From an uncultured Sulfolobales archaeon (GTDB taxonomy: Archaea; Thermoproteota; Thermoprotei_A; Sulfolobales; NBVN01): DNA of 64,000 nt. Below the pieces are notes generated by a model. The model ran no database searches. It had not been told where the DNA came from and saw only the letters and a list, made by a program, of their open reading frames with translations. Shown here in pieces: positions 4,936-48,827 of the stretch; the stretch's first letter is position 1; every line of letters starts with the position of its first letter. The position numbers and the translations under genes were made by a program. The stretch covers positions 66,667-130,666 of the forward strand of contig CALJEN010000005.1 in the NCBI GenBank assembly GCA_938073905.1, read 5' to 3'.

Positions 4936-5118
4936 CTGTCACCACGCGTTCCACCCCGGCCCCGGGAGCCACCGAGGTTCCCGGGGGACAAAGGTAGATA
5001 GAGCACCCCACGTCCCGGGCCCCCTCCGGCGCCCCTCGGTGCCGATCTTCCACCGCATACCGGACACGCCGGCGGCCCCTTCCGGCCCCTCCGCGGTCGC
5101 TCTACGCACTACGCGCAG
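4936..5118 (-). ncRNA. Copy A (degenerate) of a three-copy structured RNA-like element
   Basis: 4944-5022 is near-identical, with one 1-nt indel, to the reverse complement of 12258-12337. It lacks the A/T box and the terminal hairpin seen in copies B and C. It abuts the stop codon of the membrane-protein gene at 5129. Confidence 0.4.
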
Positions 5119-5128
5119 AGAGGTTGGT

Positions 5129-6661
5129 TTAGGAGCTGCTGCTAAACCCGGGGACGCGCCCTGTGGTAGGACCGTGGGTCGCGCTAGGGGCGGGTGGGTA
5201 TGGAGGCCGCAGAGGGTTCAGCATTGCAGGCTCAGTGCCTTCCCGAGACGGTTGGGCGCCCGCGCAGGCATCGGCGCGCGTTCTCAGCAGGGATGTCACC
5301 AAGTAGAGCATGACTAGAGCGTAGACGAGTATCAGAGAGGCTCCCAGGACGTTCGTGTAAGACTCTACGAGCTTCGCGTAGCTGTAGTACTTCTCACCCA
5401 GGCTGATCAGTCCCTGCAGCGTCTCGTTCAGGGGGGTGTCCAGAGACTTGTAGAGGAGGTCTCTAGCCGGGAGGATCTCGCCCGTCTCCTCGATTACGAC
5501 CACGTCGTTCACCAGAGCCGGGATCAGCATGTACAGCCCGCTCCAGAGAGCGGCCAGCGCGGCCGCCGCGTTGTAGACCACCACGGTCTTCCTGCGCTTG
5601 AGCCCGTGGGTGAAGGCTAGGTGGATTATGAGGGGGTACGCCCAGAGGAGGTAGTTCGGGTTCACCACCTTGTTCAAGACCAGCAGCAGGGACACGAGGA
5701 CTAGGCTCGCGAGGACGACGTCGTCCTCGCTGCGGACCCCGAGCTTCCTCACGAACAGCAGGAACGCCCCCACCACGGCTGCCAGCATCACGGGGAGCCA
5801 GACGGCGTTCACCACCCTCACGACCTCGGGGTTCCTCCCCGAGAGCAGGACCGGTATGTTCCACACGGAGACGTACTGGGGAGGCCTCTCGCTGTGGAAG
5901 AGGAGCACGTTGTGGATGAACGCGTGGGGGTTGGCTAGGAAGAACGGGAGGACCACGGCGAGTACGGCGACCGAGGTGAGAACGATGTACTGGGCGATAC
6001 CCCTCGCTCCCTCCTTTCTATAGACGTAGTAGAGGAGGGGTATCAGCGGGATGGCTGCCAGGGGCTTGGTTAGGACTACGAGCGCGGCGGATAGGCAGCT
6101 CAGGAACGTGCCGAAGCGTGGCAGGCGCAGTCCTACTATCGCTAGGTAGAGGAAGAAGGCTACCAGGGGGTCGAACTGGTAGTTGGCGAGAGTCACGATG
6201 GTCGGAACACCTATCACCGCCCAGTAGGAGGCCTCGGAGCCGAACCTCCTCCACAAAAGGATCGCTAGGGCTACCGTGAACAGCAGCATGGGCAGCTTGA
6301 CTATTCCCCTAACGACGTGGTCCAACGCCGCCAGCAACGTCCGCCCTACGCCGGGCACAGTCCTGCTGACCGATGTCACGGCCTTGACCACAGCCTCCAC
6401 CAGCCAGTGAGTCCCTATGTATATGAGCGGCGGGATGGGCGGATACACCACCCTGTAGCTCATGTTGTTCAGGAGCAACGGGACCTCGTAGATCCTGTAG
6501 AGGCCCGTGTACTTGGCGGCTCTGACCCAGTTCTCGAAGATGCTGATGTCGTACCAGTTCCACATGCTAAGGCTAAAGAGGGCAAGAACTAGGGTCAGGA
6601 GCACGACCCTCAGCCTGGGGTCGGCCAAAGACTTGGTCACGTCGCTCCTCACCGCACCCAC
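5129..6661 (-). CDS. Polytopic membrane protein, possibly a GT-C-type (DUF2029-like) glycosyltransferase
   Basis: Contains many hydrophobic segments. The first loop, YRVVYPPIPPLIY, resembles the Y-x-YPP loop of DUF2029/GT-C mannosyltransferase-like proteins. The family call is weak. Confidence 0.5.
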   Translation of the reverse strand: MGAVRSDVTKSLADPRLRVVLLTLVLALFSLSMWNWYDISIFENWVRAAKYTGLYRIYEVPLLLNNMSYRVVYPPIPPLIYIGTHWLVEAVVKAVTSVSRTVPGVGRTLLAALDHVVRGIVKLPMLLFTVALAILLWRRFGSEASYWAVIGVPTIVTLANYQFDPLVAFFLYLAIVGLRLPRFGTFLSCLSAALVVLTKPLAAIPLIPLLYYVYRKEGARGIAQYIVLTSVAVLAVVLPFFLANPHAFIHNVLLFHSERPPQYVSVWNIPVLLSGRNPEVVRVVNAVWLPVMLAAVVGAFLLFVRKLGVRSEDDVVLASLVLVSLLLVLNKVVNPNYLLWAYPLIIHLAFTHGLKRRKTVVVYNAAAALAALWSGLYMLIPALVNDVVVIEETGEILPARDLLYKSLDTPLNETLQGLISLGEKYYSYAKLVESYTNVLGASLILVYALVMLYLVTSLLRTRADACAGAQPSREGTEPAMLNPLRPPYPPAPSATHGPTTGRVPGFSSSS

Positions 6662-6936: not shown

Positions 6937-7593
6937 TTGCGAGCTCTTCCTATAAATGCCGGTCTAGCGAGGAAGCAGCTTAGGGACACCGGGCTGAGCG
7001 AGCGGCTGCTGGAAATCAGCGGAGGCAGGGTCACGCTCGTATACGGGAACGCGGGGAGTGGTAAGACCAACCTGTGCCTCTGGGTCCTCTCCAAGACCCC
7101 CGGGCCCGCACTCTACCTGAGCACGGAGGGCACCATACCGGCACCGCTCTTAGACAGGTACTCCCTGGTGGACAGGGAGTTCTACTTCAGGGAGGCCTTC
7201 AGCCTCGAAGACCTCTCGGTCCAGCTGGTCGGCATGCTCGCCGAGGGGTCGCTGGGGGACTTCAAGTCCATATGCGTGGACTCGGTCAACGCCCACTACA
7301 GGTACGAGGTCGCCGGAAGACAGGACGCCAACAAGCTACTCAACGCCCTGCTAGCCGCCCTCTCCTACGCCGCGAGCAGGTTCGGGTCTAGGGTCGTGCT
7401 CACGGCGCAGGTGAGGGAGGAGGAGGGCGAGCACGTTCCCAGCGGGTACGACGTCCTCAGCTTCTGGTCAGACGTAATCCTCAGGGCTAGGAGGAGTGGA
7501 GACCTGAGGGAGCTCGAGGCGGTCAAGCCGGAGGAGCTCAGGGGACTCAGGTTCGCGTTCAGGATCAGCGAGCGGGGTGTGGAGTTTGGATAA
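6937..7593 (+). CDS. RecA-superfamily ATPase, RadB/RadA-paralog (KaiC-like)
   Basis: Walker A is LVYGNAGSGKTNL and the Walker B-like stretch is SICVDSV. The roughly 220 aa size is typical of archaeal RadA paralogs. TTG start is uncertain. Confidence 0.65.
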   Translation: MRALPINAGLARKQLRDTGLSERLLEISGGRVTLVYGNAGSGKTNLCLWVLSKTPGPALYLSTEGTIPAPLLDRYSLVDREFYFREAFSLEDLSVQLVGMLAEGSLGDFKSICVDSVNAHYRYEVAGRQDANKLLNALLAALSYAASRFGSRVVLTAQVREEEGEHVPSGYDVLSFWSDVILRARRSGDLRELEAVKPEELRGLRFAFRISERGVEFG

Positions 7594-8125
7594 CCACGTC
7601 GAGTTCGCCCTCAGGCTGCTCTTCCTGGCACCGGCGTTCGTCGCCAACGCTCTGCCGCTGGTGGTGAAGGGCTTTGTGAAAAAGAGGCATCCGGTGGACT
7701 TCGGCAGGGTGTTCGTGGACGGCAGGAGGGTGTTCGGGGACAGCAAGAGCTGGGAGGGCTTCGCGGCCGGAGTCCTGGCCGGCATCGCTGTCGGGGCAGC
7801 TCTATCTCCCCTCTACGGATGCGCGCTCGCGGAGCTCGCCATAGCCGGGTTCGTGCAGGGCCTCGGTGCGATGCTGGGGGATCTGGCCAACTCCTTCGTG
7901 AAGAGGAGGCTAGGCATGAAGCCGGGTTCGCCGCTGCCGGTCTCCGACCAGGCGTCCTTCGTGGTCGCATCGCTGGCGCTCGTGAAGCTGCTGGGGGTGG
8001 ATGGGCTCGCGGGCGTAGAACTGGGGACTACGGAGGTCCTGGCATTGATAGGCATAGCCCTGGTGCTACATCCCCTGACGAACTACATAGCGTACCTGCT
8101 AGGGATAAAGGAAGTCCCGTACTGA
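7577..8125 (+). CDS. carS: CDP-archaeol synthase (DUF46/CarS family)
   Basis: Shows the conserved CarS stretches GDSKSWEG, GDLANSFVKRRLG and PVSDQ, plus about 5 TM segments. Confidence 0.8.
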   Translation: MWSLDNHVEFALRLLFLAPAFVANALPLVVKGFVKKRHPVDFGRVFVDGRRVFGDSKSWEGFAAGVLAGIAVGAALSPLYGCALAELAIAGFVQGLGAMLGDLANSFVKRRLGMKPGSPLPVSDQASFVVASLALVKLLGVDGLAGVELGTTEVLALIGIALVLHPLTNYIAYLLGIKEVPY

Positions 8126-11584: not shown

Positions 11585-12103
11585 GTGATACTCTCGGACT
11601 TCGACCTGAGGGCGTACCTCGAGAGCGGCAGGCTCGGGGTCGTACCACTCTCGAGCGAGACGATCAGGGAGAACGGGCTAGACCTGAGAGTCGGAGAGGA
11701 GTACTGCCGCGTGGTAGCGAGCTCCAGGGAGCTGGCGGTTGAGGAGGACCCTCCCGAGAGCTACTACAGCTGCGGGAGAGCCGAAGACTTTCTGAGGCTG
11801 GAGCCCTCGTCCCACTACCTGCTCCACACGCTCGAATACCTTAGGATGCCGCCGGAGCTCATGGGGTTCGTCGAGCTCCGCTCGACGTTCGCTAGGCTCG
11901 GCTTCCTGATGCCACCGACGATAGTCGATGCGGGTTTCGAGGGTCAGCTGACGGTCGAGATCCTCACGCCCCCCTTCCCGGTCAGACTGAGAGTCGGGAC
12001 GAGGTTCCTGCACGTTGTGTTCGCTAAGGTCGCGACGCCGGCTAGCAGTACCTACAGAGGCAAGTACCAGGGTCAGAGGGGAGTAACGCTGCCGAAGTGG
12101 TAG
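11585..12103 (+). CDS. dcd: dCTP deaminase
   Basis: ILSDFDLRAYLESGRL...ENGLDLRVG...DAGFEGQLTVEI is typical Dcd/dUTPase-fold sequence. The start was trimmed from 11342 to the GTG downstream of the TATA box. Confidence 0.85.
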   Translation: MILSDFDLRAYLESGRLGVVPLSSETIRENGLDLRVGEEYCRVVASSRELAVEEDPPESYYSCGRAEDFLRLEPSSHYLLHTLEYLRMPPELMGFVELRSTFARLGFLMPPTIVDAGFEGQLTVEILTPPFPVRLRVGTRFLHVVFAKVATPASSTYRGKYQGQRGVTLPKW

Positions 12104-12166
12104 CGCGCCAGCCCCCGAGCCGCACCGGCCCGTACAGGGGTTCGGTCGCAGTTTCTGGGCAGCAAA

Positions 12167-12176
12167 CTTCATAATA
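12167..12176 (+). promoter_or_regulatory. A/T box CTTCATAATA preceding element copy B
   Basis: It aligns with the TTTATATA box of copy C and lies about 25 nt before the conserved body begins. Confidence 0.45.
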
Positions 12177-12196
12177 CCACTACCCAACATCAACGT

Positions 12197-12367
12197 AGGA
12201 CGGGTGTGCCCGATATGTGGCGGAGGAGAGAATAGCACCGAACGGGCACGCGAGGGTGGGCCCGGGACGTGGGGTGCTCTATCTACCTTTGTCCCCCCGG
12301 GAACCTCGGTGGCTCCCGGGGCCGGGGTGGAACGCGTAGTCACGAAGCGTTGACTACGCGGCAACGG
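12197..12367 (+). ncRNA. Copy B (best preserved) of a three-copy structured RNA-like element; family unknown
   Basis: Has several conserved helices and a terminal 10-bp hairpin at 12333-12360 (CGCGTAGTCA/TGACTACGCG). A 32-nt block (12316-12347) is identical to copy C. There is no coding signal. Confidence 0.5.
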
Positions 12368-12379
12368 TATACCCGGTCC

Positions 12380-13300
12380 CTAGAGGACTGTGGCCTCGCG
12401 TATCTTGGCCCTAATAGACTCGTCGCTCAGGTCCTCACAGCTCTTCACTCCGAGCTTGCCCGCGACGTAAGCGGCCGTCTGAACGAACCCGTTCAGGTCT
12501 CTGAATAACCTGCTGGTGTGGGAGTAGACGCACTTCCGCGATATGGGGCACGCGGTACACTCGTACCTGGCGCAGTAGACCTTCTGCGGGTATACATACT
12601 CCCCCTCTAGAAGCCCGCGCCTCTTCAGGTACCTCAGGTAGTGTATATCGACCGGCGCCCTGCTCCGGTCGAGACCGCTGTGGAGGATGAACGAGTCGGC
12701 CACCTTGGGTCCCAGGTACTTCACTTCGAGAAGCCTCCTCCTGAGAGCGCTCGAGCTCGCGGAACCGGGCGGTAGCGGCATGGTGCGAGCGATCGCGAGT
12801 AGACTGTCGACTACCTCCACGAACTGCCGGAGCTGGTAGGACCCGAACTCTCTATAGGTGGAGAGAGCGGCCTTCGCGGCCGCTCTCTCGCATCCTCCGA
12901 GAGCTTCGAGCTTACCCAGGAAGGCCCTAACCCACCTCACCGTGTTCCTGTGGTAGTCCGTGTTCCTCGAAAGGAACGCGCTAGCGAGCACCGCGAGGGC
13001 GTCCCACGGAGAGGCGGAGACGCCAAGGCAGTAGAAGCCTCTCATCAGCTCCTCCGCTACCTCCCTAGCTCTAGCCTCCAGCTCCCCGAGGCACACCTCC
13101 CTGCTTATCCAGTGTCCGGCGGCGTACTCGAGGAGCTCTCCGGAGCAGAGGCTGCCGTAGCACTTCAACCCTCCGTTCGAGCACAACCGCGTCCCCTTCC
13201 CAAAGCCGTAGACCTTCACCCAGCACTCCCCCTTCTTCCTAAACATGGGTAGCGAGAAGCTAGCGTAGAGGGTCAGGTCTAGGTCTACACGAGCCCCCAT
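12380..13300 (-). CDS. HhH-GPD superfamily DNA glycosylase with a C-terminal Cys cluster (EndoIII/Ogg-like)
   Basis: The HhH-GPD region is YLGPKVADSFILHSG...APVDIH. The C-terminal CARYECTACPISRKC has Cx4Cx2Cx5C spacing, like an Fe-S cluster loop. Confidence 0.7.
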   Translation of the reverse strand: MGARVDLDLTLYASFSLPMFRKKGECWVKVYGFGKGTRLCSNGGLKCYGSLCSGELLEYAAGHWISREVCLGELEARAREVAEELMRGFYCLGVSASPWDALAVLASAFLSRNTDYHRNTVRWVRAFLGKLEALGGCERAAAKAALSTYREFGSYQLRQFVEVVDSLLAIARTMPLPPGSASSSALRRRLLEVKYLGPKVADSFILHSGLDRSRAPVDIHYLRYLKRRGLLEGEYVYPQKVYCARYECTACPISRKCVYSHTSRLFRDLNGFVQTAAYVAGKLGVKSCEDLSDESIRAKIREATVL

Positions 13301-21278: not shown

Positions 21279-21947
21279 TTGCTGTACGTGGTGCCAGCGA
21301 TATTCGTGGAGACCACAATGACCTCGGGCCGGCTATACGAACTGGTGGTCTCGGGGACGTTACCGGTCGAGAGGGTCGCAGTCTACGGAGCAGCGGGATC
21401 GATCCACCTGTTGGAGTGGGCCGACCTGAGGGGAACTCTTAAGACCGCTGTACTCGCACCCCACGTGAGCGAGCCGGTGCGCCTCACGCTGTACGCGGAA
21501 TCCGACTGGTTCTACGTGGGGCGGACTATCTACGTGAACCCGCCTGGAGTCTACGAGGTCGTCGGGAAGCTCGAGGAGTCGATCGGGAGGCTGGAGACCT
21601 CCCTGGCGGTCGAGCGCGAGAGGATAGACAGGCTGAGCCGAGCGGTGGAGGAGCTGAGGCCGGAGTTGCGGAGCCTCGCCGAGGAGCTCGGGAGGCTGAG
21701 GGAGTCCGTCGCTGCCGAGATCGGAAAGCTGAGCGCGACCCTGAGCGAAGCACTCTCCTCGATCGCAGACCTGAGGCAATATGCGGCGAGCTTAGAAGCA
21801 TCCCTCAGCACCGAGCGCGAGAGGATAGACAGGCTTGGCCGGGAGATGGATAAACTCGGGCTAGAGCTCCTGAACCTCGTCGGGGAGCTCGGGAAGCTGA
21901 GCACAACTCTAAGCGACGCCCTCTACTCGATCGCGGACCTAAGGTAG
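21279..21947 (+). CDS. N-terminal part of a coiled-coil protein, ending at an in-frame TAG
   Basis: A beta-rich N-domain is followed by two tandem coiled-coil modules. TAG at 21945-21947 replaces the Gln of the DLRQY motif found in the previous module. The same frame continues into ORF 21960-22286. Confidence 0.6.
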   Translation: MLYVVPAIFVETTMTSGRLYELVVSGTLPVERVAVYGAAGSIHLLEWADLRGTLKTAVLAPHVSEPVRLTLYAESDWFYVGRTIYVNPPGVYEVVGKLEESIGRLETSLAVERERIDRLSRAVEELRPELRSLAEELGRLRESVAAEIGKLSATLSEALSSIADLRQYAASLEASLSTERERIDRLGREMDKLGLELLNLVGELGKLSTTLSDALYSIADLR

Positions 21948-25621: not shown

Positions 25622-25716
25622 AGCGGGGTGGGGTAGCCTGGTAGCCCGCGGGGCTCATATGGGCGATCCCCTGTGAGACCCCGAGGTCGGTGGTTCAAAT
25701 CCACCCCCCGCTACCA
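25622..25716 (+). tRNA. Initiator tRNA-Met (anticodon CAT) with an 18-nt intron at the canonical 37/38 position; CCA is encoded
   Basis: The cloverleaf can be drawn by hand. The acceptor stem is AGCGGGG/CCCCGCU, with the A1:U72 pair typical of archaeal initiators. The anticodon stem is CGGGG/CCCCG (three G-C pairs), the anticodon is at 25656-25658 and the T arm is GGUGG-UUCAAAU-CCACC. The intron at 25660-25677 can pair with the anticodon loop (CUCA/UGAG). Confidence 0.9.
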
Positions 25717-48301: not shown

Positions 48302-48508
48302 CGGGTTTCCGGTCGGATCGATAGATATAAAGCGAAGGCGGTCGCGCTTCCGCGAGACCCCTGCTCAGACGGTTCCCGTTCGTCGGAAGCCGTCCCTACG
48401 CTGCCCCGCAGCGCCCAACCTAGGCGTGCTCCGAAAGCGACGCTGGCGCGCGGTCAACGAGAGGACGCCCTGCGCACGCGGGTCGTGTGCCTCGCGAGAA
48501 GCGGTCGA

Positions 48509-48672
48509 CCGTTGTCGCGTAGTCAACACTTCGTGACTACGCGTTCCACCCCGGCCCCGGAGGCCTCGGTGGCTTTCGGGGGCAACGGTAAAGCACCCCA
48601 CATCGAGCGCCTCATAGCGTGCCCATTCGGCTTACTCGCTTCGCCACATACCGGGCGCGCCTATCCCGCCAT
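48509..48672 (-). ncRNA. Copy C of the three-copy structured RNA-like element
   Basis: Aligns with copy B from the A/T box to the terminal hairpin (48516-48543) and the CAACGG tail. The predicted helices are maintained despite substitutions and indels. Confidence 0.5.
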
Positions 48673-48692
48673 CACGTAGTGTTGGGGAGAAG

Positions 48693-48700
48693 TATATAAA
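48693..48700 (-). promoter_or_regulatory. TATA box (TTTATATA on the - strand) preceding element copy C
   Basis: A strong A/T octamer about 25 nt upstream of the conserved body. It aligns with the A/T box of copy B. Confidence 0.5.
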
Positions 48701-48827
48701 GTTTACTATTTAGGGGCTGCAGCCGAACCCCGAGCTCGGTCCCAGGAGGACAGAGGGCTCGGTGCTCGGGGCGGTCGTAGTTGAAGTAGATTCTCTAGTT
48801 CGAGATCCCAGAGGTATCCGGCGGCTG

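Follow-up and report, generated by a model that had tools for sequence, protein, structure and literature searches.

Three short repeats in a Sulfolobales genome are probably gene-less IS607 derivatives retaining a TnpB ωRNA scaffold

A 64,000-nucleotide stretch of the genome of an uncultured Sulfolobales archaeon (hereafter, the window; G+C approximately 62%) contains several related, promoter-bearing elements, and these raise the question of what kind of sequence they represent. A sequence-only reading of the same DNA had entertained two possibilities, a paralogous family of independently transcribed structured RNAs or a non-autonomous mobile element equipped with its own promoter, while considering that the element could not be assigned to any known family.

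Reading of the region, a repeat finder and a three-way alignment identified three related copies and no more within the 64 kb, at about the coordinates previously given. Their limits were as follows:

12137-12368, + strand: copy B
48731-48508, - strand: copy C
approximately 5149-4936, - strand: copy A, decayed

Searches with nhmmer delimited copy B at 12137-12373 (+; E = 6e-67), copy C at 48735-48503 (-; E = 1e-65) and copy A at 5154-4927 (-; E = 3e-49). When a covariance model (R1) was applied to the whole window with filters off, only copies A, B and C were matched, with bit scores of 155.7 for C (E = 7e-47), 96.3 for B (E = 1.7e-28, across the full model) and 19.3 for A. The similarities described earlier were reproduced: a 32-nt block at 12316-12347 was identical between B and C, and was the longest exact block that they shared; both possessed the A/T box; and both ended in the 10-bp hairpin CGCGUAGUCA/UGACUACGCG followed by (G/A)CAACGG (12333-12367 in B, 48543-48509 in C). 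Measured from the GG of the left end (LE) to the GG of the right end (RE), B and C are each approximately 230 bp in length. Copy A had neither A/T box nor terminal hairpin, and is a dead remnant; as reported previously, its positions 4944-5022 were the same as 12258-12337 of copy B apart from one 1-nt indel, and this identity over 79 nt points to a recent duplication or to gene conversion. Elsewhere in the window there is a 90-nt direct repeat (21611-21700 and 21812-21901), whose copies are 79% identical and 201 nt apart; its likely setting is a coding region in which coiled-coil-like segments recur.

The element matched no Rfam family, as had been supposed; a cmscan-type check produced nothing for it either at the gathering score or at E <= 10. 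The only Rfam match in the window was an intron-containing tRNA gene (25622-25713, +; 53.7 bits) with an intron of approximately 20 nt in the anticodon loop; ARAGORN detected neither this tRNA nor any other in the window. Nor did Rfam match the element within a full-length relative, L044 (L numbers denote related or syntenic loci). Because Rfam has no model that detects the element, the test suggested by the sequence-only reading could not expose its identity. An H/ACA or C/D sRNA, a fragment of RNase P or SRP RNA, a ribozyme and an origin-recognition box were each considered and set aside, the defining motifs being absent.

The identity of the element emerged from its relatives. A scan of a genome collection with the pattern GGGGTGCT...GGGGTGGAACGCG returned 36 matches, 35 of them by chance (mostly in GC-rich bacteria) and one real. 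The latter, L012, belonged to a more AT-rich Sulfolobales MAG and combined the same promoter box, CCTAAATAGTAAAtTTTATAT, with a shorter body of approximately 113 nt. This compact mini-element (7441-7625, +) lies approximately 10 nt from a tRNA gene (7355-7430, -). A first metagenome pattern, based on 3' motifs, gave 0 matches, and two scans of viral contigs gave 0 matches and one chance match in a coding region; searching metagenomes for the 5' motif TATGTGGCG...CCGAANGGGCACGC recovered six true relatives. In L044, L048, L051 and L052 the homologous stretch was the end of a gene of approximately 395 codons reading ...TCPICGELNKPNGHAFKCKRCGFQADRHLVAAWNIA..., the product of which was the RNA-guided endonuclease TnpB (NF040570, 142.8 bits against a cut-off of 100, plus PF07282). 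Upstream of tnpB lay a gene for a transposase of the IS607 family, which exceeded the NF033518 cut-off of 110 with a score of 214.5 bits and had both a Resolvase and a MerR-type HTH domain; such a serine-recombinase TnpA with a MerR-like HTH was found in the full-length elements L044, L052 and L053. Further family members were added from L053-L056. The TnpB relatives number 161, and related tnpB genes occurred widely among thermophilic archaea, in Bathyarchaeia, Methanomethylicia, Nitrososphaeria, Jordarchaeales, Korarchaeum and Thermoprotei. The locus L051 also carries an archaeal SRP RNA (7510-7917, -) scoring 95.8 bits against an Rfam gathering score of 96.5; the match is approximately 408 nt long, compared with 317 for the model, and is situated approximately 340 nt from an IS607 copy with a 5'-truncated tnpA.

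The body of the element aligned base for base with the last 45 or so codons of tnpB and the right end of IS607 elements, and is identified through this homology as a TnpB ωRNA scaffold. Applied to L044 and L051-L056, R1 scored 200-250 bits across the last 190-210 nt or so of tnpB, and every match ended at the ...CAACGGT right end, at or just past the stop codon. A stretch of approximately 63-80 nt was absent from the window copies and from L012, where the deletion was of the same kind; in full-length elements this stretch contains the hairpin H3 (UUCCAAGCGG/CCGCUUGGAA) and also codes for the second CxxC and the RuvC-III aspartate. In the window copies H3 is cut out in frame, and what remains of the last tnpB codons is no longer coding. 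L045 and L046 represented a second kind of mini-element, in which the LE promoter was joined to an undeleted tnpB 3' end. The L046 mini-element is found beside a second, distant tnpB that is 28% identical (the two features occupy 718-1664, -, and 2145-2461, +), and the 3' end of this gene matched the covariance model at 32.9 bits, so that the scaffold fold reaches a more distant TnpB clade.

No tnpB or tnpA was found in the window, either by tblastn with four TnpB/TnpA proteins or by profile search of all 515 stop-to-stop ORFs. Given the absence of tnpA, the window copies are derivatives rather than autonomous members of IS607, and any activity would require a nuclease from elsewhere in the genome. 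There was no protein gene between the ends of B and C, which contained only remnants of the TnpB C-terminus; in copy C the remnant (48654-48571) was 49% identical to the L052 TnpB by tblastn. Each copy was interpreted, with considerable confidence, as an ORF-less internal-deletion derivative of an IS607 element, comprising the LE with the tnpA promoter, the ωRNA scaffold and the RE; such a copy would most likely provide the guide for a TnpB acting in trans. The mobile-element reading was thus correct, its promoter being that of the IS607 LE and tnpA, and so was the perception of RNA structure, since the body is a scaffold with covarying helices. Homology to tnpB and IS607 contradicts the alternative of a paralogous family of independent RNA genes, and the statement that the element could be assigned to no known family was wrong in substance, for it is homologous to the tnpB 3' end and the IS607 RE. 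The features of the copies were assigned as follows:

12137..12202, + strand: LE of copy B, homologous to the LE that immediately precedes tnpA in L044, L052, L053 and L054
12137-12140, + strand: GGGG junction of copy B, the start of its LE
approximately 12160-12176, + strand: degenerate BRE/TATA of copy B, CAGCAAA CTTCATAATA, read from the sequence
near 12198, + strand: predicted transcription start of copy B, from the distance to the tnpA ATG in L044
12203..12368, + strand: ωRNA scaffold of copy B, with H1, H2, H4, H5, H6, H7 and tail, H3 deleted (R1 and alignments)
12333..12367, + strand: terminal hairpin H7 and GCAACGG tail of copy B, ending in the GG core, which form the RE
12333-12342 and 12351-12360, + strand: arms of H7 in copy B
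12368..12387, + strand: predicted guide segment of copy B, in flanking DNA 3' of the RE, after the known architecture of TnpB ωRNAs
48662..48731, - strand: LE of copy C (LE alignment)
48731-48728, - strand: GGGG junction of copy C
48707-48702, - strand: BRE of copy C, AGTAAA
48700-48693, - strand: TATA box of copy C, TTTATATA
near 48670, - strand: predicted transcription start of copy C, by analogy with L044
48508..48661, - strand: ωRNA scaffold of copy C, the best-preserved copy (R1 and tblastn)
48543-48534 and 48525-48516, - strand: arms of H7 in copy C
48515-48508, - strand: tail of copy C, ACAACGGT
48488..48507, - strand: predicted guide segment of copy C, in flanking DNA
4936..5149, - strand: copy A, decayed, with TATA box and RE hairpin lost and a middle of 79 nt nearly the same as in B
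5149-5147, - strand: GGG at the LE start of copy A, which is kept and is followed by GTTTAGCAGCAGCTCCTAAA

Alignment of left ends showed that the stretch GGGGTTCGG.TGCAG..CCTAAATAGTAAACTTTATATA in the window was the LE that directly precedes tnpA in full-length elements. Within it, the copy C sequence CCTAAATAGTAAACTTTATAT matched L012 at 20 of 21 bases, and the LE of the full-length L044 and L054 at 18-19. The LE was kept from the GG junction to about the position of the tnpA start codon, BRE and TATA box included. In L044 the tnpA ATG occurs 30 nt past the first T of the TATA box; this spacing, together with the LE homology, identifies the A/T box as the tnpA promoter, presumably giving a leaderless or near-leaderless transcript. 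In each of the ten elements aligned, GG stood immediately before the start of the conserved LE sequence, and the RE read CAACGG in 10 of 11 elements (CAACAG in L012). Similarity among the copies ended one base past CAACGG. IS607 transposases are known from the literature to need a GG core and to prefer TGGG, and as far as sequence goes the GG at both junctions of the copies matches IS607. No terminal inverted repeats or target-site duplications were noticed on reading the three copies. Duplicated target sites or linkage to a transposase had been put forward as signs of a MITE, and these do not apply here, as IS607 elements are reported to have neither inverted repeats nor target-site duplications and there is no transposase in the window.

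In full-length relatives, sequence conservation also serves the protein code and, for this reason, only covarying helices were counted as evidence of RNA structure. The structure test used an 11-sequence alignment (A4), in which the strands of H4, H5 and H7 were additionally curated by hand. The proportion of cells paired was 88.5%, compared with 82.0% in column shuffles (0 of 500 shuffles reached the observed value) and 32-42% when the partners were slid; changes on both sides were seen at 14 pairs, and the covariation score too was reached by 0 of 500 shuffles. Three helices, H4, H5 and H7, covaried across the 11 relatives. H4 alternated between UGGGG-U-GC/GCCCCCG and UGCCG-U-CC/GGCGGCG, while H5 occurred as seven strand pairs (CCACC/GGUGG, CCAUU/GAUGG, CCAUC/GAUGG, CCGUC/GAUGG, CCCUC/GAGGG, CCCUU/AAGGG and UCUUC/GAGGA). 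H7 changed from CGCGUAGUCA/UGACUACGCG to CGGAUAGUUA/UAACUAUCCG or to GGGAU/AUCCC, with three double changes. Two helices proposed earlier were retained, GUGCCCG/CGGGCAC as H1 and GGGG.../...CCCC as H4, the latter with strong covariation. A third, CCCCGGGAACC/GGCUCCCGGGG, was not kept in relatives, being paired in 53% of cells, the same as column shuffles; it is replaced by the covarying H5 (CCACC/GGUGG), enclosing a small hairpin, H6. In copy C every helix was intact, and in copy B H5 could pair only after a one-base shift of register. A 6-bp candidate pseudoknot may form between the H4 loop (ACCGUU) and the tail (AACGGU, in the ACAACGGU tail), adjoining the predicted guide; this is proposed from invariant complementarity, with no change on both sides, in 9 of 11 sequences, B having one mismatch and L012 no loop. 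A loop-E motif was considered for the AGUA/GAA internal loop and rejected, since these bases are really the coding remnant of Cys-Pro-x-Cys and Lys-Pro-Asn.

Each copy was intergenic and located just 3' of a gene on the same strand. Copy B is flanked by a gene ending at 12103, which we take from its translation to be dCTP-deaminase-like, and by a convergent gene ending at 12380. Two mechanical ORFs cross it (11678-12364, -, 228 aa; 12269-12508, +, 79 aa); neither is at all likely to be real, and both might be annotated as genes by mistake. Copy A has a membrane-protein gene on one side and a convergent gene on the other. The 510-aa ORF of the former (5129-6661, -) has its stop codon inside the copy A LE (5129-5150, -), so that its last few codons are transposon sequence; the insertion may have changed the C-terminus. 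Copy C occupies the spacer that separates a deoC-like gene from one for an aldolase; this spacer measured 47 nt and 181 nt in relatives whose Top6A was 89% and 86% identical. The element was absent from this spacer in the syntenic loci L037-L041, where divergence is too great for a base-exact empty site to be defined, and on the strength of these empty sites copy C is a lineage-specific insertion. Between the RE of copy C and the aldolase start there is a GC-rich spacer of approximately 200 nt (48302-48507) with no counterpart in L037 or L038, so that the gain at this site exceeded the 230-bp element.

It is possible, if somewhat unlikely, that the copies are inert fossils, that is, decaying leftovers of IS607 in which the helices were simply inherited and nothing is transcribed or used. 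Copy A, lacking its TATA box and RE hairpin, has the appearance expected of this, as does copy B with its degenerate TATA, shifted H5 and mismatched pseudoknot; H3 is missing from all window copies, and neither tnpB nor tnpA accompanies them within the window. However, copy C scores 155.7 bits with no helix impaired, and L012 retains its helices in spite of a broken reading frame. Two genomes that differ greatly in G+C content, moreover, both harbour the H3-less type with promoter and helices kept, and two differing deletion architectures, that of L045 and L046 and that of the window copies and L012, both place the promoter before the scaffold. That the copies are instead cellular genes for a structured RNA, independent of any transposon, is scarcely credible. 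The body corresponds to the tnpB 3' end and RE base for base, the promoter is the IS607 LE, both ends have GG junctions and the copy C site is empty in close relatives, all of which outweigh the promoter-like box of B and C, the conserved helices and the want of an Rfam match that such genes would display.

A small leaderless gene, encoding a remnant zinc-ribbon peptide of approximately 49 aa (CPxCG...), would account for the ancestral frame being open in B and C from CP(I/V)CG to the ancestral stop within H7, and for a GTG just past the predicted transcription start in B. Yet copy C has an in-frame TAG ahead of the motif and no start codon until well inside, the L012 frame stops early (GCC GCC TAG), the second CxxC is deleted, and substitutions keep base pairs rather than residues; a coding function is accordingly as implausible as an independent RNA gene. 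Slightly less so, and still very improbable, is the notion of domesticated guides, whose task would be to regulate neighbouring genes by bringing TnpB, or a nuclease-dead form of it, to them, and not to maintain the transposon. It draws on the position of every copy directly 3' of a same-strand gene, and on the guides of B and A, which would overlap the 3' end of a convergent gene in antisense orientation; this placement fits random insertion into intergenic GG sites, however, there is no effector gene nearby, and the guides match their own flank only (those predicted for B and C had no second match in the window).

Interpreted as IS607 derivatives that guide a TnpB supplied in trans, the copies may operate in the following manner, by analogy with characterized systems. 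The LE promoter would start transcription 6-9 nt 5' of H1, near 12198 in B and 48670 in C, and the transcript would fold into H1, H2, H4, H5/H6 and H7, the H4 loop pairing with the tail. Read-through into flanking DNA would then supply a locus-specific guide. A TnpB from a full-length element elsewhere in the genome, the putative partner, could load this RNA and, following excision, cut the empty site, so that recombination would restore the copy; TnpA, also in trans, would carry the element from one GG site to another. This follows the published model of TnpB homing, in which the guide matches DNA beyond the RE: once the element has been excised and the site rejoined, TnpB cleaves that site, and recombination brings the element back. 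The homology, the element boundaries, the covariation and the lack of tnpA and tnpB in the window are established from the sequence; transcription, loading by TnpB in trans and present activity of the copies are predictions.

The class of mechanism is established. Standalone ωRNAs without effector or transposase genes, working in trans, have already been described (PMC10691335, and Altae-Tran et al. 2021 as summarised there), as have PATE-like ORF-less elements, which often encode an ωRNA (PMC10055086). The window copies resemble standalone OMEGA ωRNAs, as summarised in PMC10691335, in being mobilised ωRNA loci that lack genes for effector and transposase, in having the scaffold first and flanking DNA next as guide (a prediction in our case), and in requiring a compatible TnpB in trans; both function in trans and a partner TnpB in the genome are putative for the window copies. 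They differ from those loci, as summarised, in deriving from an IS607-type (serine recombinase) element of a thermophilic archaeon and in the fusion of the LE tnpA promoter 6-9 nt before the scaffold. PATE-like derivatives of IS200/IS605 (Haloquadratum, PMC3119063; Geobacillus, PMC10055086) similarly consist of ends without a protein gene, often encode an ωRNA and exist as several copies per genome. In those elements, however, the ends take the form of subterminal hairpins, which a Y1 HUH transposase cuts beside a TAM, whereas the window copies have IS607 ends, GG core junctions and, in their full-length relatives, a serine recombinase.

Those full-length relatives share with the IS607 element CboIStron (bioRxiv 10.1101/2023.11.20.567912) the order of serine TnpA then TnpB. 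Junctions also agree, with a GG often preceded by G (NGGG here, TGGG in CboIStron), as does an ωRNA spanning the tnpB 3' end and the RE; in contrast, the present elements have no group I intron, their hosts are archaeal and neither gene survives in the window copies. Classical MITEs are likewise short, non-coding, multi-copy deletion derivatives of insertion sequences mobilised in trans, but the window element carries a promoter and a structured RNA, and its copies lack noticeable inverted repeats or target-site duplications. What may be new are the specifics: an archaeal IS607 clade, the fusion of tnpA promoter to scaffold, a naturally H3-less scaffold, and an RNA for which Rfam has no model.

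An apparent orphan RNA family is thus resolved into an element with a known mechanism, and it is evident that Rfam does not yet detect a widespread archaeal TnpB ωRNA. When genomes are annotated, copies of this kind ought to be masked as IS607-derived and not entered as genes. The minimal natural scaffolds without H3 (approximately 113-160 nt), with a fold backed by covariation, could help in trimming thermophilic TnpB ωRNAs for genome editing. Beyond this, the copies could belong to a self-sustaining, guide-only parasite lineage, or have been recruited by the host to target DNA next to particular genes; we regard this as doubtful. Were the guide-only lineage real, the joining of tnpA promoter to scaffold and the trimming of H3 would have been selected time and again, and high-copy standalone guide genes, three in 64 kb, would be hijacking TnpB and TnpA in trans. 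In either case, IS607 would have given rise in archaea to RNA-only derivatives that evolve as units of their own.
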